Shown: positions 2,223 through 15,418 of the stretch, piece after piece
Layout: each line of letters starts with the position of its first letter
How positions within the stretch are numbered: position 1 is the first letter of the stretch
IMG/VR virus record: IMGVR_UViG_3300006045_000004
Span: 1-26,179 of that record
Direction: 5' to 3' (one strand)
Source of the DNA: a virus
DNA length: 26,179 nucleotides
The notes under the pieces: model-generated
What the model was told of the DNA's origin: nothing
Seen by the model: the letters and a program-made list of their open reading frames with translations, nothing else
Database searches by the model: none
Made by a program: the position numbers and the translations under genes

Positions 2223-3580
2223 TCTACCACCACAGTCCAATTAGATAAAGTTGAATATCTATTTTTAAAATTATTACCTATTTGTAAGCTTGATGCATAA
2301 ATTTTCAAATCTGATGTATTAGGACTTGAGTAAAATGGAGTATTGTTTGGTGTATAAATTGATTTTCCAGACCAATCAACATTTCCAATTATAATCTTTT
2401 CTAAAACTTGACCACCATTCATAAAATTATAATTATCACCAGTAGCATTAACAAGTCCACTTAAATTAATAGTTTTTAAATCATAACAAGCTTCTAAACA
2501 TCTTGTACCAATATCAGTTACATTAACAAATCCACTAAAATCTATTTCTTCTACACCATAAAAATGTCTGCACATATAATAAAGAGTTGTTGTAGCACTA
2601 TAATTATTTCCAAATTTAATTTTTTTTATAGTATTTAAAGGTATTGGGTTATTATTTATGATAACATCTTGTGCATTTTGATTATTAACTTGAAAATTTG
2701 TTACTGGTGTTGTATTTGGTTCTATCTCTATCTTTGTTCCATCAAATAATTGTATATAAGAATCATAATTTTCTATTGTTATATAAAAATTATTTTCATT
2801 AAAAAGTTTGTTAAATATATTAATTTCAGCTAAATTACCTATAATTGAATTATCTTCTTCTTTTTTAAATAATATATCACCATTATCATTACCTGTATAT
2901 TTTTTAATATTAATTGGATATGTTGTTATATTTGAATTAAAATTACTCATATTATATATTTTTCCTAATTCAATATCCATTTCAACATCTTCAAGAACAT
3001 TATATATTATTGGTTCAACATCTGATGGTATTTCTTCTAAATTAATTATATCTTCGTTATTATATTCATCTTCTTTTATCCAATAGTCATCTGGGTCTTG
3101 TTGTTTGATAGTCATGTTTTCTGGTTTTCTTGGAGATATTACTTCTCCACCAGGGGTTATTTCTTTTTGAAGAAATTCTATTTTTAAATTTCCATCAACA
3201 ATAGTAACTTGATATTCTGGAGTTTTTTCAATAACAGCTTCATTCATATCAGCTTTAAATAAGAAAACACTATTATCATTAGGATATGTGTATGATTTTG
3301 GAAGAATATGTAATATTATTTGTGTTGATGTTGTAAAAAATGGTAATTTAATATAATAATAATCATAATAAAGATTATGAGGTAATAATGTTTTCTTTTC
3401 ATCATCAAGTGTAAATCTTATATTTGAATATGTTTGATTTAATTCTTCATCTATGTTTTCTGTTATGTCTGATTTTTTTATTTTTATTGTTATTTTTCCA
3501 GAACCTGTTTGTGGGTTTGGATTATTTAGTGTTAATGTGTATTCTTTGTGTAGACATTGAAGTAATTCATTTATATCCAT
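2219..3580 (-). CDS. DUF2341-like N-terminus plus C-terminal BspA-type leucine-rich repeats; putative adhesin
   Basis: N-term 'YSNIRFTLDDEKKTLLPH...YYIKLP'; C-term LRR-like 'VEEIDFSGFVNVTDIGTRCLEACYDLKTINLSGLVNAT...FMNGGQVLEKIII'. Confidence 0.65.
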   Translation of the reverse strand: MDINELLQCLHKEYTLTLNNPNPQTGSGKITIKIKKSDITENIDEELNQTYSNIRFTLDDEKKTLLPHNLYYDYYYIKLPFFTTSTQIILHILPKSYTYPNDNSVFLFKADMNEAVIEKTPEYQVTIVDGNLKIEFLQKEITPGGEVISPRKPENMTIKQQDPDDYWIKEDEYNNEDIINLEEIPSDVEPIIYNVLEDVEMDIELGKIYNMSNFNSNITTYPINIKKYTGNDNGDILFKKEEDNSIIGNLAEINIFNKLFNENNFYITIENYDSYIQLFDGTKIEIEPNTTPVTNFQVNNQNAQDVIINNNPIPLNTIKKIKFGNNYSATTTLYYMCRHFYGVEEIDFSGFVNVTDIGTRCLEACYDLKTINLSGLVNATGDNYNFMNGGQVLEKIIIGNVDWSGKSIYTPNNTPFYSSPNTSDLKIYASSLQIGNNFKNRYSTLSNWTVVVE

Positions 3581-6084
3581 TATTTCACCATCAGGTTGTT
3601 TGTACTTGTTTTTCCGTCTAAAAATGTCATTATGTTCCAGAATCCTTTCTGTATTCCTGTTATTGTTATATTTTCTTCTATTGTGTCATCTGGTTCTAAT
3701 TCATTTATTACGATTTCGTTTCTATCTAATTCTAATTGACTTGATGCTAAAGTTTTTATTACTTTATTTTCTAACTTTACATCTCCAATATTTATTAGTT
3801 TAACTTTTAAATTTGCTGTTCCATCTATTTCAACTATTCTTGGGTTTATATCAGCAGATAATAAATATAATGGTAATTTTTTTCTATAATATATTATCAT
3901 TTTAGCATTAAATATTGTTACACTACTGTTTAATGCTGAATCATTATTAGTTATTCCTATTTGGAATCCAAAATCTTCATCTACTAATTGTTCTCTTGTA
4001 ATTCTTGCTTGATTAAATAAATCTTTTTTTCCACCAAATTTAAGTATTTGTCTTCTTGTTCCTATAATTTTAGACTGTTGACAAGGAACTTCTTCTATAT
4101 CACCATCTTTTGGTAATAATAACATAGTTCTTTCATCATCTTTTTTATTAGCATATCCATTATCAGCAATCACATCAACTAAAATTTCAACACCTTCAAT
4201 TTTAATATCATTTGGTAGGAAATTTAAATCAAATTTCATCAATATACTTTTAGACTTATATTTTTCATTCGTCACATAATTTCCATATTTTGCCCTAATT
4301 TGAGCATTACTATAATTATCACTATCACTCATAATATTATCTAAAAAACTCCACTCAACATTATCCTTAAAATCATTCTGAACAACACTTAATGGATATA
4401 TTGGTTCTGTTTCTGTGAAATAAATATCATAATTTGGTTCATTAGTTTCAGTCATTACAACTAACTCTTCAATAAATGGGTCAGTTGACTGTATTCTAAT
4501 TAAACTTGTATTATCATTATCTTTCAAAAAAGTTGAATTAATTTTATCTTCATTAAGAACATATTCACTCAAAAGTCTTCTTTCATACCAATAATCTTGT
4601 TCTACTGGGTATGGATAGTGTATTGGAAATGTTCTTATTTCATCATCAATATCTATTTCTTTTTTATAATCTCTTCTTGGTAATCCATAAATTTTACCAA
4701 ACTTATCAAGATTAGGATTAATTAAAAATCTTTCATCATCAGTTTCTTTTTCTTGTGGAAACCCTATTTGTATTGGATTATTTAATCCCCATAATTGTAC
4801 TTCTGCGATAAATTTTTCTACTGGAAATTGCTTTGTTATTCTATCATATACAATTTTATCTTTTTTTTGATATGATTTCTTCCATAAAGATTTCCATCCA
4901 TTTTCATTTGGATTAAATTTAAAATCATATAATCCATAAAGCTCTATACTTTTTAATGGTAAGAATGTAAGTGTTGATAATTTTATATTTTGTTCTACTG
5001 TAAATATTGGTTTTTCCATCTCTATTGTAATATTATATATATTATTAAATGATGAAATTATCTCCTCTTCACTTTCTATTTGTAATTCTATTTTATTTTT
5101 ATATAATGTTGAACTACTTGCATTATATTCATCTTCAAACCTATCAATTAAATTACTTGCAGGTATGTTTAAATTACGGTTTACATACCAAACATTATCT
5201 TTAATTATAGGGTTTTTAAAGTATTTTGCATCTCCTATGTTTATATATTTTTTTTCTTCATCATTATATAGATATAAGTATCCATCTTCTATATATGGCT
5301 CGTTTCTAACAAGTCCAATTACATAACTATTTCTATATTTTTGTGTTTCATTATCATAAACATACCAATAATCGTTTTCTATATACGGTTTTTTATTATT
5401 TTGCTCATAATTCGAATCAACAAATACTTCTTGTATAGCATCATAAACAAACCAATTTTCTTCTTCTATGTACGGATTTGGTGTTTGTGGAACTGCTGGT
5501 ATTTCTGTATTTATATCTATAAACCATGTTTTATTTTTAACATAAGGTTCGTTATTTGAAGCATTATATCCAGTATCTTCATAAGTTTCTGTTTCTATAT
5601 TGTATACTTGCCATTTATCATCTATTATTTTTTTTGCTTGTTGTTCTGTGTTTGTTTTTGATAGTTGTCCATCTATATATAATGCTGATAAGTTTAAATC
5701 ATATGTTATTTTGTCTGCTTTTATTTTTGGATTTATGTATTCTACTGTTTGTGTTCCGTTTTTTAGTGTTAGGTTTTTTAAGTAGTTGTCTGGATGTCCT
5801 TTTTGAATTTCAATGGTTATTTTTCCTCTTGTTGGATATTTTGTTATTGGTAGTTGTATTGATTGGTTTATTGTTTCAAATGTTCTTTTTATGATTTTGT
5901 TTTCTTCTCTTAGTGCTTCTTTCCAACATTGTACTGGTTGTTCTATTCTGTTTGTTATTAGTTCGTATATGTATTTAAATTCCTGGTCTCCACTATATTC
6001 GTTAATTATTTTAATTAATAAATCTTCAGACCACCATAATGGTAAACTATGGTCAATACTATATCCTATGTTACTATTAAGCAC
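3580..6084 (-). CDS. Large baseplate wedge / tail-fibre attachment protein (834 aa) with internal aromatic repeats
   Basis: Long ORF (GTG start) directly after J-like and gp25-like genes; 'LDKFGKIYGLPRR' resembles the wedge (gpI-like) motif; product inferred mainly from context. Confidence 0.55.
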   Translation of the reverse strand: MLNSNIGYSIDHSLPLWWSEDLLIKIINEYSGDQEFKYIYELITNRIEQPVQCWKEALREENKIIKRTFETINQSIQLPITKYPTRGKITIEIQKGHPDNYLKNLTLKNGTQTVEYINPKIKADKITYDLNLSALYIDGQLSKTNTEQQAKKIIDDKWQVYNIETETYEDTGYNASNNEPYVKNKTWFIDINTEIPAVPQTPNPYIEEENWFVYDAIQEVFVDSNYEQNNKKPYIENDYWYVYDNETQKYRNSYVIGLVRNEPYIEDGYLYLYNDEEKKYINIGDAKYFKNPIIKDNVWYVNRNLNIPASNLIDRFEDEYNASSSTLYKNKIELQIESEEEIISSFNNIYNITIEMEKPIFTVEQNIKLSTLTFLPLKSIELYGLYDFKFNPNENGWKSLWKKSYQKKDKIVYDRITKQFPVEKFIAEVQLWGLNNPIQIGFPQEKETDDERFLINPNLDKFGKIYGLPRRDYKKEIDIDDEIRTFPIHYPYPVEQDYWYERRLLSEYVLNEDKINSTFLKDNDNTSLIRIQSTDPFIEELVVMTETNEPNYDIYFTETEPIYPLSVVQNDFKDNVEWSFLDNIMSDSDNYSNAQIRAKYGNYVTNEKYKSKSILMKFDLNFLPNDIKIEGVEILVDVIADNGYANKKDDERTMLLLPKDGDIEEVPCQQSKIIGTRRQILKFGGKKDLFNQARITREQLVDEDFGFQIGITNNDSALNSSVTIFNAKMIIYYRKKLPLYLLSADINPRIVEIDGTANLKVKLINIGDVKLENKVIKTLASSQLELDRNEIVINELEPDDTIEENITITGIQKGFWNIMTFLDGKTSTNNLMVK
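5150..5630 (-). repeat. About six degenerate protein repeats of the form PYI..(d/n).W.(V/L)Y(D/N)......Y in the 834-aa protein
   Basis: IIDDKWQVYNIETETYEDTG; EPYVKNKTWFID; NPYIEEENWFVYDAIQEVFVDS; KPYIENDYWYVYDNETQKYRNS; EPYIEDGYLYLYNDEEKKYINIG; NPIIKDNVWYVN. Confidence 0.8.
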
Positions 6085-6086
6085 TT

Positions 6087-6539
6087 TTAAACACCTCTAC
6101 TAATAATGTTTGGTTTTTCTCTTGTTGTGAATGAATTTATTATATCCATTGCTATATGACTTACACCAGTAAATCTTCCATATATACTATCTACATCTAC
6201 TTCTATCTTAACATAAGCTCTACCATAAGGTATTACTCTTATTTTTGTAAATAAATTCACTTCTTCATATTTATCTTGTATATCTCTGATATGAGATTCT
6301 GCTTCTCTAAGTAACAATCCGTCTAATGGAGAACCTAAAAGATTCCATATTCTACAACCATAAGTTTCAAGACCTACACCATCTATAACACCATAAGGGG
6401 TTTTTATTTCTCCTTCTATAGCTTGCCAAAGTGCTTCTGCATCTGATATCATTTCTATATCATCTTTATCAACTGTGGTCTTTTCCCAAAAACCATCATA
6501 CATATCAGTTCTTAGGTCTTGTATATCTCCTTCTGGCAT
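6087..6539 (-). CDS. Baseplate gp25/gpW-like sheath-initiator protein
   Basis: 150 aa; 'EALWQAIEGEIKTPYG...YGCRIWNLLG...LREAESHI' fits the gp25/gp46 pattern; adjacent to baseplate J. Confidence 0.75.
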   Translation of the reverse strand: MPEGDIQDLRTDMYDGFWEKTTVDKDDIEMISDAEALWQAIEGEIKTPYGVIDGVGLETYGCRIWNLLGSPLDGLLLREAESHIRDIQDKYEEVNLFTKIRVIPYGRAYVKIEVDVDSIYGRFTGVSHIAMDIINSFTTREKPNIISRGV

Positions 6540-6540
6540 T

Positions 6541-7677
6541 TTAATAACCTTCGTAATTTAATTTTGTAGTTACTTTATTAGGGTATAAATTTTCTGATAC
6601 TCCAACAACAATATGTTTATCATCTATTGTTAAGTCGTCATTGGTTATTTTAATATTAAAATCTAATACTTTAAATTCACTTGGAATTGAGTATTGTATT
6701 GATGATTTTAAATCATTTAATGATAAAGATTTTCCTACCATCATTCCTATTCCAAAATAATCTTGTATATTGTCTTCTATAAATTTATAAAGTTCTTGTG
6801 ATTCTCCATATGTTATATTTTTTTCTCCAGTTAATAATATTTCAATTAAAAAATTTACATATAATCTTTCAACTTTTTGGAATCTATAATTTATTCCAGC
6901 TATTCTATTATAGTTTAATTCAGTTTTAATATCTTCATATTCAAATTCATTTGGAATATCTAAAGCTAATAATACACTTCCATAACCATCATAATATTCA
7001 ACTATTTTATAAAATCTTTTTGTTAGTCCAAGTTCTTCTATTTGATTTTCTATATCTCTTTCTGTTCCTTCTCTTAAATATCTCCATGAAGTAGATAACG
7101 CTCTTTCTCTTGCACTTTCAAGAGATTCGTCATCTCTTCCACTCCAAGCACTTTTTGGATTTGTTACTGATATATCTGCTCTATATTCTGATTCAACAAG
7201 ATATACAAGAGTATCTTCATCTATATTATAAGCTGAACCAACTTCTGTACAATAAGCAAGAACTTTTGCTTTTTTAGTACCTTTCCACATATAAAGGTCT
7301 TCAACTGTTTCAAAAATTACTGGGTCTGAACCAAGAGTAGATACTGTAAATCCTGCTGGTATTACAATATTATCATTAAAAGTTGGGTCTCTTGTAAATT
7401 CAAGAACCACTTTTGCATTTGAAGCTATTCTTATTGATATATATGGTTTTAATAGTGATTCTAATAACGCTTCATCTGTTACCGTTTCAAGAGTAAATTG
7501 TGAAACATATTCATTCATTATACTTATTAAACTTTCAAATTGTCTTGCAAAAACAGCAAACAGTAATCCAATCCTTCCTCCTTCAAATCTTCTACTTAGA
7601 AGTCCAACTTCTATTGCTGATGTGAAAAGGGCTGTCAGAATTTCTTCTTCTGACATATACATCTCACTCATAACCAT
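6541..7677 (-). CDS. Baseplate J-like wedge protein
   Basis: 378 aa; 'IVIPAGFTVST...FETVED...AYCTEVGSAYNI...VTNPKSAWSGRDDESLESARER' is typical of Baseplate_J; GGAGAG upstream. Confidence 0.9.
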   Translation of the reverse strand: MVMSEMYMSEEEILTALFTSAIEVGLLSRRFEGGRIGLLFAVFARQFESLISIMNEYVSQFTLETVTDEALLESLLKPYISIRIASNAKVVLEFTRDPTFNDNIVIPAGFTVSTLGSDPVIFETVEDLYMWKGTKKAKVLAYCTEVGSAYNIDEDTLVYLVESEYRADISVTNPKSAWSGRDDESLESARERALSTSWRYLREGTERDIENQIEELGLTKRFYKIVEYYDGYGSVLLALDIPNEFEYEDIKTELNYNRIAGINYRFQKVERLYVNFLIEILLTGEKNITYGESQELYKFIEDNIQDYFGIGMMVGKSLSLNDLKSSIQYSIPSEFKVLDFNIKITNDDLTIDDKHIVVGVSENLYPNKVTTKLNYEGY

Positions 7678-7694
7678 TTATATCTCTCCCATTA

Positions 7695-8726
7695 TTATAA
7701 TTTTGTTACAATACAAATTGAAGGTTGGCTTATGCCTCTCATATATTGTTCTGCTGTTGCAAAAGACCTTGTTTCAATCCATCCACCAGACAAACTGTTT
7801 GCAACTATTACTTGTTTCTTATTTAAGCAAATACCTGTAAAGTATTCGTAATGACCCCAATTAGGGTTATTCTTATATAAACAATGTGTAAAGAATGATT
7901 TCTTTGGGTTTTTAATTATATTATTCAAACCTTCCCATTTAACACTTGAAAAATTTTTCCATTCAATTTTAAGCTTTCCACCAAACTTATGAACTAAAGT
8001 AGTTAAAGCTTTATCAAGACCAGAATGACCTGTTCCACTTGTAGTAGTTCCAGCAATATTAGCTATTTCTTTTTCAGAATAATATTTACCCCATAATTCA
8101 TAAATAACTTGTTGAAGACAATTTGGACCACACCAATAATTAGTTTCTTGATGGATATAATCCTTGAGATACTTAGCTACATACATACAAGTTTGAGATG
8201 ATGTTGAAGCTGGTGGAACTGGAGCTGTTGGAGGATTTACATATACACCATCTGCATATGTTCCTTTAGCAGTTTTCCATCTTTCCATTCTTTCAAGCAT
8301 ATTTTTATATCTTGCATAAGTAACATATTCTCTTTTTGTACCATCAATATAAACTGTTGATGGTGCCGAACCATTAGTTTTTACCCAATTTTCAACTCTT
8401 TTTTTCATATCTAAAAATGTTGTTTTTGGTATAAATTTTGTTGTTCCACTTATATTACTTAAAGTTTGAGTAATATTAGTTGTTGTAGTTGTTGTAACTG
8501 GAGTTATAGCTCTTTTATAAGCTTTTTCTGTTTCATTACCCCATACACCATCTACAGCACATGTACTACAATAATATCCTTGTGTTTTAGCCCATGATTG
8601 GAATTTTTTTGTTGCATCTCTGCTAAATTGACCCCAATCACCATCTACATTTTTAGTGTACCATCCTTTGTTTTTTAAGAATGTTTGTCTTTCTTTTTTT
8701 TGTGCTAACGCTAATGTGTTTATCAT
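7695..8726 (-). CDS. Endolysin, putative pseudomurein endoisopeptidase (PG-binding-like domain + two pseudomurein-binding repeats + C39-like peptidase; PeiR-like catalytic type)
   Basis: N-term 'QTFLKNKGWY...VDGDWGQFSRDATKKFQ' and 'VDGVWGNETEKA'; Thr linker; PMBR-like 'FLDMKKRVENWVKTNGSAPSTVYI' and 'YKNMLERMERWKTAKGTYADGVYV'; catalytic 'QETNYWCGP...WGHYE...VANS'; follows three membrane-protein genes. Confidence 0.85.
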   Translation of the reverse strand: MINTLALAQKKERQTFLKNKGWYTKNVDGDWGQFSRDATKKFQSWAKTQGYYCSTCAVDGVWGNETEKAYKRAITPVTTTTTTNITQTLSNISGTTKFIPKTTFLDMKKRVENWVKTNGSAPSTVYIDGTKREYVTYARYKNMLERMERWKTAKGTYADGVYVNPPTAPVPPASTSSQTCMYVAKYLKDYIHQETNYWCGPNCLQQVIYELWGKYYSEKEIANIAGTTTSGTGHSGLDKALTTLVHKFGGKLKIEWKNFSSVKWEGLNNIIKNPKKSFFTHCLYKNNPNWGHYEYFTGICLNKKQVIVANSLSGGWIETRSFATAEQYMRGISQPSICIVTKL

Positions 8727-9202
8727 AATTTCTTACCTCTATTTAATGTTTCTTTTACATAATTTCTTTTATTATCATCAATACTTTTTATTTCATCTGC
8801 GATTTCAGGACTTATATTAGGTAAAATTATATTATTTCTTTCAGCTATACCCCATACATCTTTAGCCCAAATTTTAAGTTTTTTATATCTTCTTCCACAA
8901 TCACTTAACTTTCTAAGCTCTCCTTTAATCTTCTCCATATCAATTTGTAATTCATGAATAACATTTATCGCATCTTCATATTTTTTATTCGTTTCTTCAA
9001 ATTTTCTCTTATTTTCATCAGAACTCTTTTTATATTCTTCACTTAATTCTCTGTAAGAGTCTTTTATACTTTTAAATTCATCAACCTTTTCACCAGTTGT
9101 TTTAGGTTTTAAACGGTCAAATAAAAAACCTCCAACAGCACTAATTAAAGCAACAATAATTAAAGGAGCTCCAGTAATTAAAACTTCTACTAAATCCACC
9201 AT
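8723..9202 (-). CDS. Membrane protein with one N-terminal TM helix and a coiled coil; holin-like lysis-cassette component
   Basis: Hydrophobic 'VLITGAPLIIVALISAVGGFLF' then charged heptads; ATGA overlap with the endolysin. Confidence 0.6.
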   Translation of the reverse strand: MVDLVEVLITGAPLIIVALISAVGGFLFDRLKPKTTGEKVDEFKSIKDSYRELSEEYKKSSDENKRKFEETNKKYEDAINVIHELQIDMEKIKGELRKLSDCGRRYKKLKIWAKDVWGIAERNNIILPNISPEIADEIKSIDDNKRNYVKETLNRGKKL

Positions 9203-9640
9203 CTATAATCCCTTCCTTATGAATAATTTAAGATAAAAAACTCTTAAAAGAATTATAATTGTTCCCAATATTCCAAAACTAATTCTAAATATAATCCCAC
9301 CTTCAATAGTGAAAAATAATAACATAATAGTTTGAATTATAGTAACTGATAAAAATACTAAAAATATTGAAACTGTGAAATTAAACTCACTTATTCTTTT
9401 TTTTGCCGCTATTAAATATATATTAGCTATTGCAAGTAATGGAATTAAACTATTTAATACAAGATAAAAACCATCCCATTTAGGAATTGTTTCTAATGTA
9501 ATGTTTTGAAATCCTAACGATACTAATGAAAAAACTACAAATATTATAGAATAAAATATCATATATTCATAATCTGTTATTTCTATAAATTTTTCAATCT
9601 CAGCAAGAGTACATGGTATTGTAAAATCTTGGTTTGACAT
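9203..9640 (-). CDS. Four-TM membrane protein, holin candidate (paralogue A)
   Basis: Four hydrophobic segments and a basic C-terminus; shares LG(F/Y)Q...P..D and TIEGGIIFR with the neighbour. Confidence 0.65.
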   Translation of the reverse strand: MSNQDFTIPCTLAEIEKFIEITDYEYMIFYSIIFVVFSLVSLGFQNITLETIPKWDGFYLVLNSLIPLLAIANIYLIAAKKRISEFNFTVSIFLVFLSVTIIQTIMLLFFTIEGGIIFRISFGILGTIIILLRVFYLKLFIRKGL

Positions 9641-9642
9641 AA

Positions 9643-10071
9643 TTATAATCCTTCCTTTATATCGATGTTTAAGAATTTTGTTCTGAAGAAAAGCATTACT
9701 GTGATAAATATATTAAAACTCATTCTAAATATTATTCCACCTTCAATTGTGTTAAATAATAAAACATATCCTTCTATGATAGTCCACATTGCGAAAAATA
9801 TTGCTAAAAAATTTGCATAAAAGTATGCTAAGCTTCTTTTTCTTAGTAGTATTAGTATTATTGCTACGAATGATACGACTGCTATTATTATGTTTGATAT
9901 TATGTAACTGATGTCGAATTGTGGAACTGTAGTTAATATTACATCTTGGTATCCTAATGATAGTAATATTGCATCTACGAGAATTATTATGTATAGAATT
10001 AAGTATAATCTATCTACAAGATTTACATATTCTCCTAAGCTTTCTATTCTTTGTTCAATTTCTTCAAACAT
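9643..10071 (-). CDS. Four-TM membrane protein, holin candidate (paralogue B)
   Basis: Four hydrophobic segments; paralogous to 9203-9640; AAAGGA upstream. Confidence 0.65.
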   Translation of the reverse strand: MFEEIEQRIESLGEYVNLVDRLYLILYIIILVDAILLSLGYQDVILTTVPQFDISYIISNIIIAVVSFVAIILILLRKRSLAYFYANFLAIFFAMWTIIEGYVLLFNTIEGGIIFRMSFNIFITVMLFFRTKFLNIDIKEGL

Positions 10072-10076
10072 TTTTT

Positions 10077-10415
10077 TTAATCCTTTCTTATTTTTTCTCT
10101 TATCTCTTCTGATGCAGTTTTTTCTGCTGCTTTAATCGTTAAACCTTCGGTTCTTTTAAGTGAAAGAGTAAGAGCTGTTTTAATCTCCTCTGCTGTTAAT
10201 GGGATTTCAGGAATTGGATATGTTGGGTCTTCGAAAATTTCTTCTTCAATTTCTTGCTTACTTTCTTCCAAAAAACCTAAAACCTCTTTCTCCCAATCTT
10301 CATCAATAATCCACTCACCATCATCATTAATAACATAAATACGACCATTATCAAAAATATCTTTCAATACTTTTTTTGGTGCTTTATCTATATAATTCTC
10401 AATATCTTTAATCAT
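10077..10415 (-). CDS. Hypothetical acidic protein (112 aa)
   Basis: Operonic ORF with ATGA overlap to the upstream gene; no recognised motif. Confidence 0.7.
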   Translation of the reverse strand: MIKDIENYIDKAPKKVLKDIFDNGRIYVINDDGEWIIDEDWEKEVLGFLEESKQEIEEEIFEDPTYPIPEIPLTAEEIKTALTLSLKRTEGLTIKAAEKTASEEIREKIRKD

Positions 10416-11632
10416 ATTATATCCACCTTTGCACTCATTGTACTACTTCCAGCTGGTTTATTATAATAAAAGAAATGTACATCATTTATGGGCCAACTAA
10501 CATCCATTCCAAGCGTAAACCATTCTATATCTTGCGTTGTTTGGTTACTTGCAATTGTTGTTTCTTGGTAGAATCGTGCTCTAAATCTCCAATTTGTATA
10601 TCCATCATTCCACGATGTTACGATTTGTTTGGAATTAGCAGGGTCCATTAGTGTACCAACAGCCCAGTTCCCATTTAATTCATTTACGAGATTTGTTTGT
10701 CTCATCGTATTTAACATATGTGTGTTTAGTGCTTTGAACATTTTCATAAACATTGCTTTTTGTGTTGAATCTGTTACTTCTTTTGGGTTAGGTCCGTAAT
10801 AATAATGTCCATAGTGTTCATTCATAAAAAAACATCTATCTGTATTCATTGCTCTTATAAGTGCTATTCCAGTAGTATCATTATCTTGTGGTCTTTCAAA
10901 TATCATTTTTTTACACACTAACCAATCATTTATATCTATTGGTTTATTTAAATCATCTTGATTATATTTATATACACCTGCTGGTAAATGCCATAAATTT
11001 GGTTTTATTTTACTTAAATCAGGTCTATTTGCTATCTCATTATATTGAACAGGGTTTAATAATTTATCTTCAAACATTTGCTGACTAACAGTTCTTATTA
11101 AGAAAGGATTAGTATTAATTGTCTCCATAAAACTATTCATCCAACCAGAAAGACCAAAATCAATATAATCTATTAAATGATATATAACTGTATAATTTTT
11201 TATATATAATTGAGTATTATTATTTCTAAATTCAAAATAATCACTTAAATATTCTGGACTAAGTGATTCCATATCATCTAATCCCCCAGTAAATTTAAAC
11301 ATTAATTTACTATTTTTTACTATTATTTGAATTTGTCCACTATAATAATTTGGATTTGGAAAATCATCATAACTATAATGCCAAGAGAATATAACATCAT
11401 TTTTAAAGTCTACTAAATCAAGTGCTAATCCACCTGGTGCATCCCAACCAACTTGATTAACAAGGTCTTCATTCCCTTCTGTTAGTCTTGCAAAGTCTCC
11501 ACTACTAAATTCAGGTAATTCGTTTAGTGGTACTTTGCCTGCTTCGTCGAGTGATGCTACTCCGTTAGATTCGCTTCTTTTTATTATTTCGAAGATGTTT
11601 CCTTGTTTTTTTAGGTTGTTTTGTCCTGACAT
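10412..11632 (-). CDS. Putative tail fibre / receptor-binding protein (~406 aa)
   Basis: N-term 'NGVASLDEAGKVPLNELP' and 'YNEIANRPDLS' are common fibre motifs; start placed at M4 (11632), whose context GATTATTATG is shared with the 13320 start. Confidence 0.65.
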   Translation of the reverse strand: MSGQNNLKKQGNIFEIIKRSESNGVASLDEAGKVPLNELPEFSSGDFARLTEGNEDLVNQVGWDAPGGLALDLVDFKNDVIFSWHYSYDDFPNPNYYSGQIQIIVKNSKLMFKFTGGLDDMESLSPEYLSDYFEFRNNNTQLYIKNYTVIYHLIDYIDFGLSGWMNSFMETINTNPFLIRTVSQQMFEDKLLNPVQYNEIANRPDLSKIKPNLWHLPAGVYKYNQDDLNKPIDINDWLVCKKMIFERPQDNDTTGIALIRAMNTDRCFFMNEHYGHYYYGPNPKEVTDSTQKAMFMKMFKALNTHMLNTMRQTNLVNELNGNWAVGTLMDPANSKQIVTSWNDGYTNWRFRARFYQETTIASNQTTQDIEWFTLGMDVSWPINDVHFFYYNKPAGSSTMSAKVDII

Positions 11633-11676
11633 AATAATCATTTTTACGGTTTTTGTTATTAGTTTTGTAATGTTTT

Positions 11677-12303
11677 ATGTTTATTTCGTTAAATCAAAGT
11701 ATAATGAATAAAGCACATCCGATAGGTACAGTTTACCAAAATGTAGCTGACAACACAAACCCATACACCTTGTTTGGTGTAGGAACTTGGCAAAGAGTTA
11801 CTGGTAAATACTTACGAGCAATGACCGACCCAGAAGGTTCTGGTGCAACAGCACTAAATCCTAAAATGGGAGGAACAAACAGCATAAACATTGATTGGCA
11901 ACATAATCACGGAAACACTAATAATATTAGTGGGGCTCCAAATACAAATTATACAAGTACGCCAAAGAATAGTGGAGCAGATTATCCGAATGTATCAACA
12001 ATTGGAAACCACGCTCATTCTGTTCGTCTTGGTTGGGCAATTCCATCAAGTGGGTATCGTATTAGAACAACAACTGCTCTTGAATTAGGAGCTGTAAGTG
12101 GTAGTTATACTGGTTCAACTGTTGTAGTTGATAATCCACTATCCAATGTATCTGGTGATAGTGGTTCACATACTCACTCTATGCCACACGACCATTTAAT
12201 GACACATTACCATACTACAAATAATGCTGGAACTCAAACAAGTTCAGTTAAAACGATTGAACCTGAATGGGTTGGTACATATTCGTGGATAAGAGTTTTA
12301 TAA
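11677..12303 (+). CDS. Alternative (antisense, probably silent) fibre-tip cassette 1; T4 gp10/gp12 C-terminal-like domain with HxH motifs
   Basis: Begins SLNQSIMNK, identical to residues 127-135 of 12298-13320; HPIGTVY...NPYTLFGVGTWQ...HNH...HAH...HTH...HDH...HYH...WIRVL; no N-terminal domain and no obvious RBS. Confidence 0.85.
   Translation: MFISLNQSIMNKAHPIGTVYQNVADNTNPYTLFGVGTWQRVTGKYLRAMTDPEGSGATALNPKMGGTNSINIDWQHNHGNTNNISGAPNTNYTSTPKNSGADYPNVSTIGNHAHSVRLGWAIPSSGYRIRTTTALELGAVSGSYTGSTVVVDNPLSNVSGDSGSHTHSMPHDHLMTHYHTTNNAGTQTSSVKTIEPEWVGTYSWIRVL
11685..11712 (+). repeat. Outer crossover site of segment 1: TTCGTTAAATCAAAGTATAATGAATAAA
   Basis: Exact reverse complement of 12916-12943; core TTCGTTAAA-TCAAAG-TATAATGAA. 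Confidence 0.95.
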
Positions 12304-13320
12304 TACTCGTATCCACATTGAAGTAAGGATATGGTCTGGATTTATACTATCTGGATTAGCACTACCTGCATTATTTGTTGCGTGAATATGGGTCATTAAA
12401 TGGTCATGAGATAATGTATGTGTATGTGCCGTTCCAGGCATATTTCTACTATTAGCATAAGTATCATTTGCTGGAACAGTATCATTAATAACAAGTTTAT
12501 TACGATTATTGGTTGAAGAACTAATATTTGTTATATCTGTATTAACTCCTCCAGTTCCTAATAAAACAACTCCTGCTAATCTTGAACCAGCTTCATTAGT
12601 AAAGAACAATCTATCTGGGTGTTTATGTGATGACTCAGCACTTGTAGTTTGTGCAGAAGCACCTGAGTTCATTGCATTACTTGTGTAAGAACCGTTTGGT
12701 GCTGATGTTATATTATTAGTGTTACCGTGATTATGTTCTGGTAAGTTATTTAAACCAAGTTTTCCAGTATATTTAACTGTACCATCTAATGTATCGCCGA
12801 ATTTCATTCCTCTTGGATATGCTCCTTCGATTTTCTGCCAAGTACCCACTCCAAAGAGTGTGTAAGGGTCAGTATCATTTAAAGCATTCATATATACATA
12901 TCCAACTGGGTGACTTTTATTCATTATACTTTGATTTAACGAATCATATAGTTCTCCTTCTCCATTTTTTAAATCTTCTAACATTTGATAAATATCTATA
13001 AGGTCTAATTCTTCATTATTTATTTCTATCTTGTTTGCTTTATCAGATACATCTACATTTCCATGTAAATTTCCTAATAAAGTCCAACCATCAAATTTAT
13101 GATAAAGATTACCGTTTCCACTATTTATATATACATCACCATCTACTCCTATTTGTTCTGATGGTGGGTCATCTCCTCCAACGAAAAGACTCCAAGGTGT
13201 TTCTATACTACAATTTGTATATATGTCTCCGTTTTCATCGAATATTAAATCTGAACATACGGATTTGTGCTTTATGCACAGTTTTTCCCATTCGTTTGTT
13301 TCTGGATTTTTAAATTTCAT
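12298..13320 (-). CDS. Tail fibre 1 (340 aa): constant N-terminus (~126 aa) plus switchable tip
   Basis: 'GGDDPPSEQIGVDGDVYINSGNGNLYHKFDGWTLLGNL' fibre module, then HPVGYVY...DPYTLFGVGTWQ...HxH motifs...MWIRVL. Confidence 0.9.
   Translation of the reverse strand: MKFKNPETNEWEKLCIKHKSVCSDLIFDENGDIYTNCSIETPWSLFVGGDDPPSEQIGVDGDVYINSGNGNLYHKFDGWTLLGNLHGNVDVSDKANKIEINNEELDLIDIYQMLEDLKNGEGELYDSLNQSIMNKSHPVGYVYMNALNDTDPYTLFGVGTWQKIEGAYPRGMKFGDTLDGTVKYTGKLGLNNLPEHNHGNTNNITSAPNGSYTSNAMNSGASAQTTSAESSHKHPDRLFFTNEAGSRLAGVVLLGTGGVNTDITNISSSTNNRNKLVINDTVPANDTYANSRNMPGTAHTHTLSHDHLMTHIHATNNAGSANPDSINPDHILTSMWIRVL
12916..12943 (-). repeat. Inner (intragenic) crossover site of segment 1
   Basis: TTTATTCATTATACTTTGATTTAACGAA is the reverse complement of 11685-11712. 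Confidence 0.95.
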
Positions 13321-13358
13321 AATAATCTTTAATTTTTTAATAATGTTTTGTAGTATTC

Positions 13359-13391
13359 TACTAATTTTTCAAAAATTAGTATTTAAATACT
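13359..13391. promoter_or_regulatory. Overlapping palindromes containing an archaeal TATA-like element; possible promoter/operator or recombination accessory site
   Basis: TACTAATTTTT-C-AAAAATTAGTA (13359-13381) and AGTATTTAAATACT (13378-13391), which reads TTTAAATA on both strands. Confidence 0.45.
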
Positions 13392-13404
13392 TATTTTTCT
13401 TCGT

Positions 13405-13433
13405 TATATAATAATATAATGAACAATGAACAT
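13405..13433 (+). repeat. Outer crossover site of segment 2: TATATAATAATATAATGAACAATGAACAT
   Basis: Exact reverse complement of 14365-14393; core at 13400-13423 is TTCGTTATA-TAATAA-TATAATGAA. Confidence 0.95.
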
Positions 13434-13874
13434 GATATAGGTTCTATCTATTTCACTTTTAATGTAAGTGATAATCCTAATAATAAATATCCTGGAACAT
13501 GGATATTATTAGACTCAAATACATATCTTATAAGTGCAGGTAATGGAATTAATGCCAAACAAAGTATAGGAAATAATCAAAGAAGTATAGATATTGATTG
13601 GTTACATACTCACGCTCAAAACGCACATAAACATAGTTTATATGTTAAAGCACCACCAGCACCAGCAGGTGGAATAACAGTTCCAGCTTCTGTTCATGTA
13701 AACAATACATTTCCAGTAGATTGGAATACATCACAAATAACTAATCAAAATGTGATGAATAGTATGAATGATATAACTGCTACAAATCAAAATTCTGGAA
13801 CTATGAGTAAAACACAAACTTTTGATAATCGTCCTAATAGTACAGCAATTTATATGTGGGAACGAGTTAGCTAA
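13419..13874 (+). CDS. Alternative (antisense) fibre-tip cassette 2
   Basis: MNNEH identical to 13867-14790 at the repeat; GSIYFT...DNPNNKYPGTW...YLISAG...IDIDWLHTH...DNRP...YMWERVS. Confidence 0.85.
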   Translation: MNNEHDIGSIYFTFNVSDNPNNKYPGTWILLDSNTYLISAGNGINAKQSIGNNQRSIDIDWLHTHAQNAHKHSLYVKAPPAPAGGITVPASVHVNNTFPVDWNTSQITNQNVMNSMNDITATNQNSGTMSKTQTFDNRPNSTAIYMWERVS

Positions 13875-14790
13875 CTCTTCTCCACATGTAGAAAGCTATA
13901 CTTTTTGGTCTGTTGTCTTTAGTTGTTGATTGCGTTCCTTTGTTTACTATTGACATTGTTGTTGTTGGATTACCAGTATTACCAGTATAGCTTGTTACTT
14001 GTGATTGTAATCTTCCAGATTGAACATTTCTAATTCCCCAATTACTTGGTACAACATTTCCAAACCAATACCAATCATCTGTATTATCTACATCAGTACC
14101 AGCAGTTCCTGGTATTGTAGCTCCCACAGTTTCCTTATTTGAATGTCTATGGATATTTGTGTGTAAATGATTAGCATTATTTAAATCGTGATTATGTAAC
14201 CAATCAATATCAATTGTATTAGAACCAATAGTATTATTACCACCTGTAATAGTTGAACCAGCACTAACCAAGTATTGATTCTCATCTATAAGAGTCCAAG
14301 TACCTGGATATTTGTTGTTTGGGTTATCTGTGTTTAATATTGTAATATATAAACTACCCACAGAATGTTCATTGTTCATTATATTATTATATACAGAAGT
14401 ATATAAATCTCCTTCTCCATTTTTTAAATCTGTTAATTCTCCTTGCATTTGACTTAATGCTTGTAATAATAATGTATCATCATAAAACCCACCTTGTTCT
14501 TCTTGCTGACAATTTTCTTCTGGGTCTATCCATAAATCATATCCTTCTGGTGGTTCTTCATTACCTATCCAGATTTTATCTTGTCCACTTCCACCTCCAC
14601 TAAAACTATTAGCATCATAGAGTTTTGGTGTTCCTGAGTTATCTGTTCCATATAATTTATTATTTTGTGTTGTTTTATTGACTTTGTTATCTAATTCTGT
14701 TTGTACTAATTGGAGAGCTCCAGCTATCATTTTATTACAATAATCTTTGGCATCTTGCCATATTTTACCGAATTCGTCTCCAATTGCCAT
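13867..14790 (-). CDS. Tail fibre 2 (~307 aa): constant N-terminus plus switchable tip
   Basis: Start at ATG 14790 (MAIGDEF) preferred to TTG 14799; 'KIWIGNEEPPEGYDLWIDP'; tip GSLYIT...DNPNNKYPGTW...HNH..HLH..HRH...DNRP...YMWRRVS. Confidence 0.9.
   Translation of the reverse strand: MAIGDEFGKIWQDAKDYCNKMIAGALQLVQTELDNKVNKTTQNNKLYGTDNSGTPKLYDANSFSGGGSGQDKIWIGNEEPPEGYDLWIDPEENCQQEEQGGFYDDTLLLQALSQMQGELTDLKNGEGDLYTSVYNNIMNNEHSVGSLYITILNTDNPNNKYPGTWTLIDENQYLVSAGSTITGGNNTIGSNTIDIDWLHNHDLNNANHLHTNIHRHSNKETVGATIPGTAGTDVDNTDDWYWFGNVVPSNWGIRNVQSGRLQSQVTSYTGNTGNPTTTMSIVNKGTQSTTKDNRPKSIAFYMWRRVS
14365..14393 (-). repeat. Inner (intragenic) crossover site of segment 2
   Basis: ATGTTCATTGTTCATTATATTATTATATA is the reverse complement of 13405-13433. 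Confidence 0.95.
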
Positions 14791-14791
14791 A

Positions 14792-15418
14792 TTAATCAAG
14801 ACTGTTATTACTTCTAAATGTACTACTTATTGTATTTATTGTACTTTCTATTTCTGTTCTAAGGTTTCCAACTGTTGTATCTACATATATTTTATTCGCT
14901 GCTGCTGTATTTGTTGTTGGGTTTGGTACTATGGGTTCGTTAGTGAATGTTTTGATTCCAGATATGTTTTGATTTCCACTTGTTTTCACAACATTTCCAT
15001 CAAGAGTTGTTATTAACCCTCTTATATCTGTATGTGCTGTTCCACTTGTATTATGGTCATCTATTGCTTGTGCTAATTCTATTGGGTCTACTGTATCACT
15101 TACTGTTGAATATAATACCCATGTACTACTGCTTCCAGCCACTCTTTGGTATACTCCTTTGAGTTTTTCTGTTGGTTGTCCAGCATTTTCTGTTTTTCTA
15201 ACCATACATAGCCAGTCGAAACTTTGTTCTCCTCCACTTATAACTGGTAAATTGCTATATAAAGCTACACTTGGTTTCCATTTTTGTCCACCAGTAGTTA
15301 ATTGAGCAATTAAATCAGAAACATCACTTACTGTTAAAATCGTAAGACCAGAAATCTTACTATCAGTATAATCTTTACCGTCCTTATAAACCTTATTAAA
15401 GGCATCTACGAGTGTCAT
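14792..15418 (-). CDS. Tail fibre shaft/connector protein (208 aa)
   Basis: Fibre motifs 'WKPSVALYSNLP', 'AIDDHNTSGTAHTDIR' and 'SGNQNISGIKTFTNEPIVPNPTTNTAAANKIYVD'. Confidence 0.8.
   Translation of the reverse strand: MTLVDAFNKVYKDGKDYTDSKISGLTILTVSDVSDLIAQLTTGGQKWKPSVALYSNLPVISGGEQSFDWLCMVRKTENAGQPTEKLKGVYQRVAGSSSTWVLYSTVSDTVDPIELAQAIDDHNTSGTAHTDIRGLITTLDGNVVKTSGNQNISGIKTFTNEPIVPNPTTNTAAANKIYVDTTVGNLRTEIESTINTISSTFRSNNSLD

Follow-up and report, generated by a model that had tools for sequence, protein, structure and literature searches.

The window analysed here, the first 26,179 nt (bases 1-26179) of the 135,897-nt viral contig IMGVR_UViG_3300006045_000004 of the IMG/VR database (GC content 27.6%), carries two tail-fibre genes, called A and B below, each of which faces a silent cassette, A' or B', for an alternative receptor-binding head. 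Inverted repeats with the features of site-specific crossover sites bound each cassette together with the head part of its gene, and no recombinase was detected in the genome, which is closed. We propose that both are site-specific inversion switches that work or did so until recently, and that each would exchange the receptor-binding head of one tail-fibre protein. A tyrosine recombinase supplied in trans by the host, XerA or else an integrase from a genomic island, may well flip both, a proposal to which we give about even weight. To our knowledge, invertible tail-fibre systems that have been well studied all encode an invertase of their own; a large archaeal virus whose two switches are intact but which lacks a recombinase would be the first of its kind.

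Results

Two fibre genes face silent cassettes for alternative heads

Gp10_C is a receptor-binding head domain, matched by the products of A and A' and weakly by that of B (Table 1). In gene A, residues 1 to about 125 are constant and the remainder is the Gp10_C head; tblastn matches this gene to receptor-binding proteins of lactococcal phages. Cassette A' is promoterless, and its product is 42% identical to the head of A. The B' product has no Pfam match and aligns with the head of B. Gene and cassette are convergent in both cases, with stop codons that overlap in TTATAA (12298-12303) for A and A' and in TTAGCTAA (13867-13874) for B and B'. In both switches the overlapping stops fall in small palindromes, at the junction of the convergent cassettes.

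The homology between A and A' starts at a 28-nt perfect inverted repeat (11685-11712 and 12916-12943), and that between B and B' at a 29-nt perfect inverted block (13405-13433 and 14365-14393). When the segments were inverted in silico, both reading frames were preserved, the fibre passing from 340 to 331 aa in switch A and from 307 to 288 aa in switch B. Residues shared by A and A' use the identical codon in only 45% of cases, and those shared by B and B' in 55%; synonymous positions in the rest of the cassettes approach saturation, and the crossover repeats comprise nine consecutive identical codons at each site. The repeats are thus conserved as DNA, beyond the protein level. Both silent cassettes are open, over 208 and 151 codons in DNA of 28% GC, and decaying remnants would not be expected to stay open that long in AT-rich DNA. 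A diversity-generating retroelement was rejected, because general Pfam scans found no reverse transcriptase family and the repeats are inverted cassettes, not pairs of template and variable repeats.

Table 1. Coordinates of the two fibre switches and of adjoining features in the window
Feature	Position	Strand	Description
Site A-L	11685..11712		TTCGTTAAA-TCAAAG-TATAATGAA followed by TAAA; outer boundary of A'; one mismatch to the strict motif
Site A-R	12916..12943		Inside gene A; encodes S-L-N-Q-S-I-M-N-K
Site B-L	13400..13433		TTCGTTATA-TAATAA-TATAATGAA; perfect block 13405-13433; one mismatch to the strict motif
Site B-R	14365..14398		Inside gene B; degenerate outer arm TTCTGTATA; perfect block 14365-14393
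Gene A, expressed tail-fibre/receptor-binding gene	12298..13320	-	340 aa; PF21939 (Gp10_C), E = 2.3e-10
Cassette A', silent alternative head	11677..12303	+	208 aa; Gp10_C (PF21939), E = 1.6e-9; N-terminal anchor absent
Gene B, expressed tail-fibre gene	13867..14799	-	307-310 aa; weak Gp10_C match, E = 2.9e-4
Cassette B', silent alternative head	13419..13874	+	151 aa; its ATG is a conserved Met codon within the crossover site
Protein next to switch A	10412..11641	-	409 aa; no Pfam or PHROG family; not a recombinase
Fibre protein upstream of switch B	14792..15418	-	208 aa; PHROG tail-fibre families and BppL_N; not a recombinase
Promoter-like element	13353..13393	+	A TTTAAATA box with three palindromes; lies 6 nt beyond B-L and is directed into B'

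The crossover sites share arms and differ in spacer

All four viral sites fit TTCKKTAWATMAWARTATAATGAAYAAW, with the symmetric core TTCGTTAWA-N6-TWTAAYGAA, a dyad of 24 bp. Each pair has a spacer of its own, TCAAAG for the A sites and TAATAA for the B sites. Across the 136-kb genome, a strict form of the motif, with up to one mismatch allowed, matches A-L, A-R and B-L and no other place, compared with 0.02 matches in shuffled genomes. The genome holds only the four sites, one repeat pair per switch. Including a phage contig described below, the arms TTCG(T/C)TAWA are conserved in eight sites that form four pairs, with the spacers TCAAAG, TAATAA, CTCTAA and CAATGG. This layout, in which inverted arms flank an asymmetric spacer of 6 bp common to both partners, is that of the core-type site of a tyrosine recombinase. 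Conserved arms with pair-specific spacers are the hallmark of site-specific recombination, for which an enzyme of the tyrosine type is the simplest candidate. As these four pairs belong to two unrelated viruses, with the same arms and their own spacers, plain homologous recombination is unlikely.

Tyrosine recombinases act between sites with identical spacers and not between sites with differing ones. In the switches proposed here, each pair places two 24-bp cores in inverted orientation, and the arms (TTCGTTAWA and its inverse) are conserved; spacer matching would allow inversion of A by A and of B by B and would block recombination of A with B.

The viral genome is closed and has no detectable recombinase

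The two ends of the contig repeat each other over 158 nt with 2 mismatches (1-158 and 135740-135897), and one open reading frame (ORF) spans the join, so the genome closes on itself. It is a circularly closed genome of about 135.7 kb that is essentially complete, with little or nothing missing; the IMG/VR entry lists it as linear, and the CheckV completeness of 85% given there is an underestimate. The 158-nt overlap also rules out that an unsequenced portion hides the enzyme. The virus has a myovirus gene set (tail sheath, baseplate J, tape-measure protein, and an endolysin with pseudomurein-binding repeats), and the endolysin repeats point to hosts among the Methanobacteriales. The nearest named relative is Methanobacterium virus PhiF1; it is a distant one, with only 29% identity in baseplate J, and is without such a fibre switch.

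An earlier note on this DNA had seen no tyrosine or serine recombinase in the 26-kb window, inside or beside the invertible segments, and had proposed that the enzyme acts in trans. In the window, Pfam and PHROGs scans of the ORFs returned only tail, baseplate, lysis and head proteins and no recombinase. Regular expressions for the tyrosine and serine catalytic motifs matched no ORF anywhere in the virus, and no N-terminal serine motif was found. Profiles also found nothing outside the window: a six-frame search of the whole contig gave zero candidates for Phage_integrase (PF00589), Phage_integr_3 (PF16795), Resolvase (PF00239), Recombinase (PF07508) and DEDD_Tnp_IS110, the DEDD domain of IS110 and Piv. 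No recombinase was found by hmmscan among about 100 ORFs of at least 140 aa, which Pfam assigns to replication, nucleotide-metabolism, anti-restriction and structural proteins. Finally, we compared a Methanobacteriaceae XerA and three island integrases with every stop-to-stop frame (phmmer --max); the best E-value was about 1, and as a control these four archaeal queries readily found one another.

The observation of the earlier note therefore stands, and action in trans is supported by a closed genome with no detectable recombinase and by sites that have site-specific hallmarks. Its suggestion of a distant viral integrase with a second role has to be dropped, as neither profiles nor phmmer found an integrase anywhere in the virus. 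A premise that invertases always lie next to their sites would be too strong, since Mpi of Bacteroides and RecV of Clostridioides flip invertons located far from their own genes.

The sole match to an IS110/Piv-type protein lies in a group of three tightly packed genes on one strand (genome positions 112358-113904; L005:6358-7904). The first is an 83-aa ORF that is HTH-like by inspection. The second, ORF 112611-113288, encodes a solo Nop/IS110-C domain of 225 aa (PF02371, E = 4e-6) that resembles TasA of the TIGR-Tas systems and matches the solved structure of a TIGR-Tas TasR (PDB 9MTY, E = 8e-8). The third encodes a restriction endonuclease of the MjaI family, about 55% identical to bacterial ones. 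The catalytic motif of IS110 enzymes is Ser-Gly; the second protein has Cys-His at the expected place and lacks a DEDD/RuvC domain, so that an IS110/Piv-type invertase was rejected. The third gene was rejected as a split RuvC partner, being an endonuclease of the MjaI family. A search by exact 7-mers, which covered dual-repeat arrays and not those of the stem-loop type, gave no TIGR guide array with a period of 30-46 nt, and nothing resembling a guide stood out as a match to the crossover sites. We treat the Nop-domain protein as a side observation rather than the invertase.

The dyad is abundant in genomes of the host lineage

Methanobacteriaceae genomes were reached via a Methanobrevibacter locus, and a loose pattern of the dyad matched 88 of the 121 genomes. 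The strict pattern TTCGTTAWA-N6-TWTAACGAA occurs in 148 of 301 Methanobacteriota genomes, in up to 7 copies each, and the reversed pattern, used as a control, in none of the 301. There are hundreds of copies across the host genomes. Of the copies inspected, almost all lie between genes, often flanked by a T-rich run and, on the opposite side, an A-rich one; the adjoining genes are unrelated to one another (nucleotidyltransferase, Schlafen/AlbA, Cas6, glutamine synthetase and others). A search of the literature consulted for the dyad string gave no match; the 24-bp palindromic dyad is an undescribed motif, abundant in Methanobacteriota genomes. An archaeal ModE box was rejected, as only the half-site is similar, the halves lie 4 nt closer together and no genes of molybdenum metabolism adjoin the copies. 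Duplicate sites in direct or inverted orientation in two genomes (G225 and G109) were discarded as assembly artefacts.

Some host copies adjoin integrases that are not Xer proteins. In one complete genome, 4-5 of the 7 sites lie 1.4-11 kb from integrases of a single family; one region there (locus L048, G063:C1:1676001-1694000) reads integrase, gene, site, gene, site, so that the dyad separates single genes downstream of an integrase of about 400 aa. In another genome (locus L058, G021:C210), two copies lie in a repeated element of about 110 nt, on either side of a single gene. By its arrangement, the host layout looks like cassette boundaries, as in integrons and pdif modules, rather than like a set of operators. 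That the dyad can surround single genes suggests that methanogens of the gut and rumen may have a system for exchanging cassettes, of which we found no description.

The earlier note had also suggested a host Xer-like recombinase. This is plausible, with indirect support from the strong over-representation of the dyad between the genes of Methanobacteriota; XerA is one candidate. A chromosomal dif site would be single, in the terminus region and of the form 11-6-11. Five complete genomes each have a copy at a distance of 14-83 kb from the point opposite the cdc6 gene (Fisher combined p = 0.025), and the same genomes hold 5-7 copies each at one mismatch, not one. These positions lend weak support to a role of one host copy as the chromosomal XerA site.

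A nested fibre switch with the same arms in a Firmicute-type phage

Viral contigs were scanned for the dyad, and the matches were mostly single and uninformative. One 12.7-kb contig (IMGVR_UViG_3300021254_000498, L122), a fragment of a Firmicute-type siphophage unrelated to the methanogen virus, has a second fibre switch; the capsid protein of this phage shares 66% identity with its counterpart in a Clostridium phage. The switch (L122:1-3708) is nested and shufflon-like, with three alternative heads. A fibre gene of 970 aa contains two sites, two plus-strand cassettes start with the partner sites, and the pairs are inverted, with spacers CTCTAA and CAATGG. Both inversions are in frame in silico, giving fibres of 975 and 963 aa, and one alternative head is a Gp10_C domain (E = 1e-22). 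Translated, the L122 sites read N-S-L-N-x-x-L-T-N, and the frame is the one in which the methanogen virus has S-L-N-Q-S-I-M-N.

Perfect identity in the inner pair covers only 14 nt, which is too short for homologous recombination; this pair therefore favours site-specific over homologous recombination. None of 80 other loci with a Gp10_C head had such a site pair, so the dyad tracks switching and is independent of the fold of the protein. Only 13 nt of the contig precede the outermost site, and whatever lies further out is hidden; such a start is a typical assembly break at invertible repeats.

Other viral matches added little. In a phage family of 48% GC, a single copy of the motif is conserved, but it lies outside the fibre genes and tells us nothing about switching. 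In two low-GC viral contigs (L097 and L174), the motif lies in long ORFs with no inverted partner in the sequence examined. No relatives with the switch of this virus came up when viral and metagenome contigs were scanned by protein and by pattern, and a switch is also absent from the distant Gp10_C homologues seen in contigs of Methanobrevibacter and others.

Discussion

Source of the recombinase

A closed genome with no enzyme, together with host-lineage genomes full of the site, makes a cell-encoded recombinase the most economical explanation. We infer that inversion occurs, that the enzyme is a tyrosine recombinase and that a host gene encodes it. The infected cell would supply a Methanobacteriaceae tyrosine recombinase that recognizes the same dyad in the host genome, and the candidates are the universal XerA and the integrases of about 400 aa found beside arrays of sites. 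Either could be the enzyme; the Firmicute-type phage warns against assuming Xer.

Several observations weigh against a host enzyme, or against inversion itself. Three other assemblies of the virus have the same orientation as the window, and no protein with the constant N-terminus and the alternative head was found among 5.8 billion protein clusters; for gene B, the collection holds only the parental form. The recombinant junction is absent from the viral and metagenome contigs, scans outside which near-identical records possibly fell. Site B-R has 3 mismatches to the strict motif, all in its outer arm. The host genomes hold the site in several copies, most of them distant from genes for recombinases, and these copies could be operators of a transcription factor. 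The search for CRISPR spacers returned short, high-identity matches outside repeat arrays and no link to a host. The presence of the site in a Firmicute-type phage means that the cognate enzyme need not be XerA, and in other viruses it may be virus-borne.

The promoter-like element near B-L belongs with these objections. Copies that are 75-89% identical occur in many Methanobacteriaceae genomes, and at the three host loci inspected the element lies about 70-200 nt upstream of genes that are on the same strand and mutually unrelated. In the virus it is antisense to the structural operon, with a TATA box about 30 nt upstream of the ATG of B', and this host-type element leaves room for independent expression of the B' head. 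No such element was found at cassette A'.

Two assemblies end close to a crossover site. The independent assembly L011 (Logan SRR5248970, a contig corresponding to window positions 3244-13487) ends 54 nt past B-L, and L012, another assembly of the virus, ends 47 nt before A-R. These ends could be a coincidence or could reflect mixed orientations in the samples.

The single orientation of every assembly, the missing inverted-form protein and the promoter-like element would also be expected if the switches no longer inverted, or if the cassettes acted without inversion, the fibre module and its sites having been inherited from an invertase-bearing virus and the enzyme later lost. The silent cassettes would then decay slowly or be expressed alone as head-only proteins. 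The existence of the same type of switch in the Firmicute-type phage, whose unseen flank could hold an invertase, fits such an origin. We nevertheless consider it unlikely: the repeats are still perfect over 28-29 nt although synonymous sites in the cassettes are near saturation, both cassettes (151-208 codons) are intact in AT-rich DNA, cassette A' has no promoter-like element, and head-only proteins would lack the N-terminal part needed for attachment to the virion. The perfect repeats would also allow inversion by homologous recombination between them, by host RadA or by the recombination genes of the virus, which include a weak AAA_24 match and nucleases of the PD-(D/E)XK/Cas4-like and ERCC4 types. 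This appears very improbable to us, as the identity ends sharply at 28-29 nt with no spread by gene conversion, the same arms recur in the four pairs of two unrelated viruses, each pair with its own spacer, the inner L122 pair shares only those 14 perfect nucleotides, and the arms are also a motif of host genomes.

There is only a slim chance that the virus itself encodes an enzyme of a family that the profiles do not see, perhaps with the TasA-like Nop-domain protein as an RNA-guided helper. Dozens of viral ORFs have no family assignment, the solo Nop ORF is preceded by the HTH-like ORF, and it has been speculated that TasA could aid phage integrases (PMC12045711). Against this, the Nop protein has no DEDD/RuvC domain and has Cys-His instead of the Ser-Gly expected of the motif, its downstream neighbour is an ordinary MjaI-family endonuclease, no dual-repeat TIGR array was found, and no ORF has the tyrosine or serine catalytic motifs. 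The hundreds of copies of the site in host genomes themselves also argue against a viral enzyme.

Returning to a host recombinase acting in trans, its consequences would be biological as well as mechanistic, since the host cell would determine how often the virus can switch host range and whether it can do so at all. A broader proposal is that a virus without an integrase outsources the phase variation of its fibre tips to a cell recombinase, through a dyad common to Methanobacteriaceae cassettes and to the nested shufflon of a Firmicute-type phage. We hold it only tentatively, as somewhat doubtful in this full form. If true, it would mean that a recombination system is shared across domains and that host-range switching of the virus is tied to the recombinase content of its current host.

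Comparison with known inversion systems

The two switches resemble the Mu G and P1 C segments (Gin and Cin; also Hin and Pin) in their constant N-terminus, two convergent C-terminal cassettes and inverted repeats inside the genes, and host-range switching is the likely purpose in both. The Gin and Cin systems have an adjacent invertase of the Resolvase family, 26-bp sites with a 2-bp core and an enhancer, whereas the closed genome studied here has no Resolvase domain and its sites are dyads of 9-6-9 bp.

The only archaeal-virus precedent that we know of is of the phiCh1 type (phiCh1, ChaoS9, phiH). There too, convergent fibre genes of an archaeal tailed virus (ORF34 and ORF36) swap their C-termini. 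Inversion of tail-fibre genes by Int1 has been described in these haloarchaeal myoviruses (PMC8371274, PMC6471424). In phiCh1, a tyrosine recombinase gene lies between the fibre genes, and many 30-bp repeats, direct as well as inverted, are clustered in both of them; here there is no recombinase and a single repeat pair per switch.

As regards the absence of an enzyme, the closest likeness is with elements that borrow the Xer recombinases of their host, as the pdif modules of Acinetobacter do. CTX-phi-type integrative mobile elements exploiting Xer (IMEX) and ColE1 cer have no recombinase of their own and use a short dyad resembling the chromosomal site, and such Xer-exploiting elements depend on the tyrosine recombinase of the host (PMC5357621). 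They differ from the present case in being bacterial and in serving integration or resolution, whereas here a structural gene would be inverted, and the dyad is a candidate XerA site.

With Bacteroides Mpi, Clostridioides difficile RecV and the Rci shufflon of R64, the proposed system shares the use of one recombinase on several segments through a common site, and the L122 switch is nested as is the R64 shufflon. In those systems the enzyme and its sites are in one genome, and here they are apparently split between virus and cell. Cre/loxP provides a further parallel, with inverted arms and an asymmetric spacer that sets orientation and compatibility. The spacer is of 6 bp here and of 8 bp in loxP, and the virus has no Cre-like gene. 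The arm TTCGTTATA resembles what we take to be the inner lox arm, TTCGTATA, and we mention this as a lead only.

Other genes of the virus

The 409-aa protein next to switch A has an N-terminus that resembles, by inspection, the N-terminus of the fibres. The candidate recombination and repair genes of the virus lie at genome positions of about 104244-112342, where they encode the AAA_24 protein, which its weak hit would allow to be read as Sak4-like, the PD-(D/E)XK/Cas4-like nuclease and an ERCC4-HhH nuclease. Replication genes, among them those for a primase and a split DnaE-type polymerase, are found near this region.

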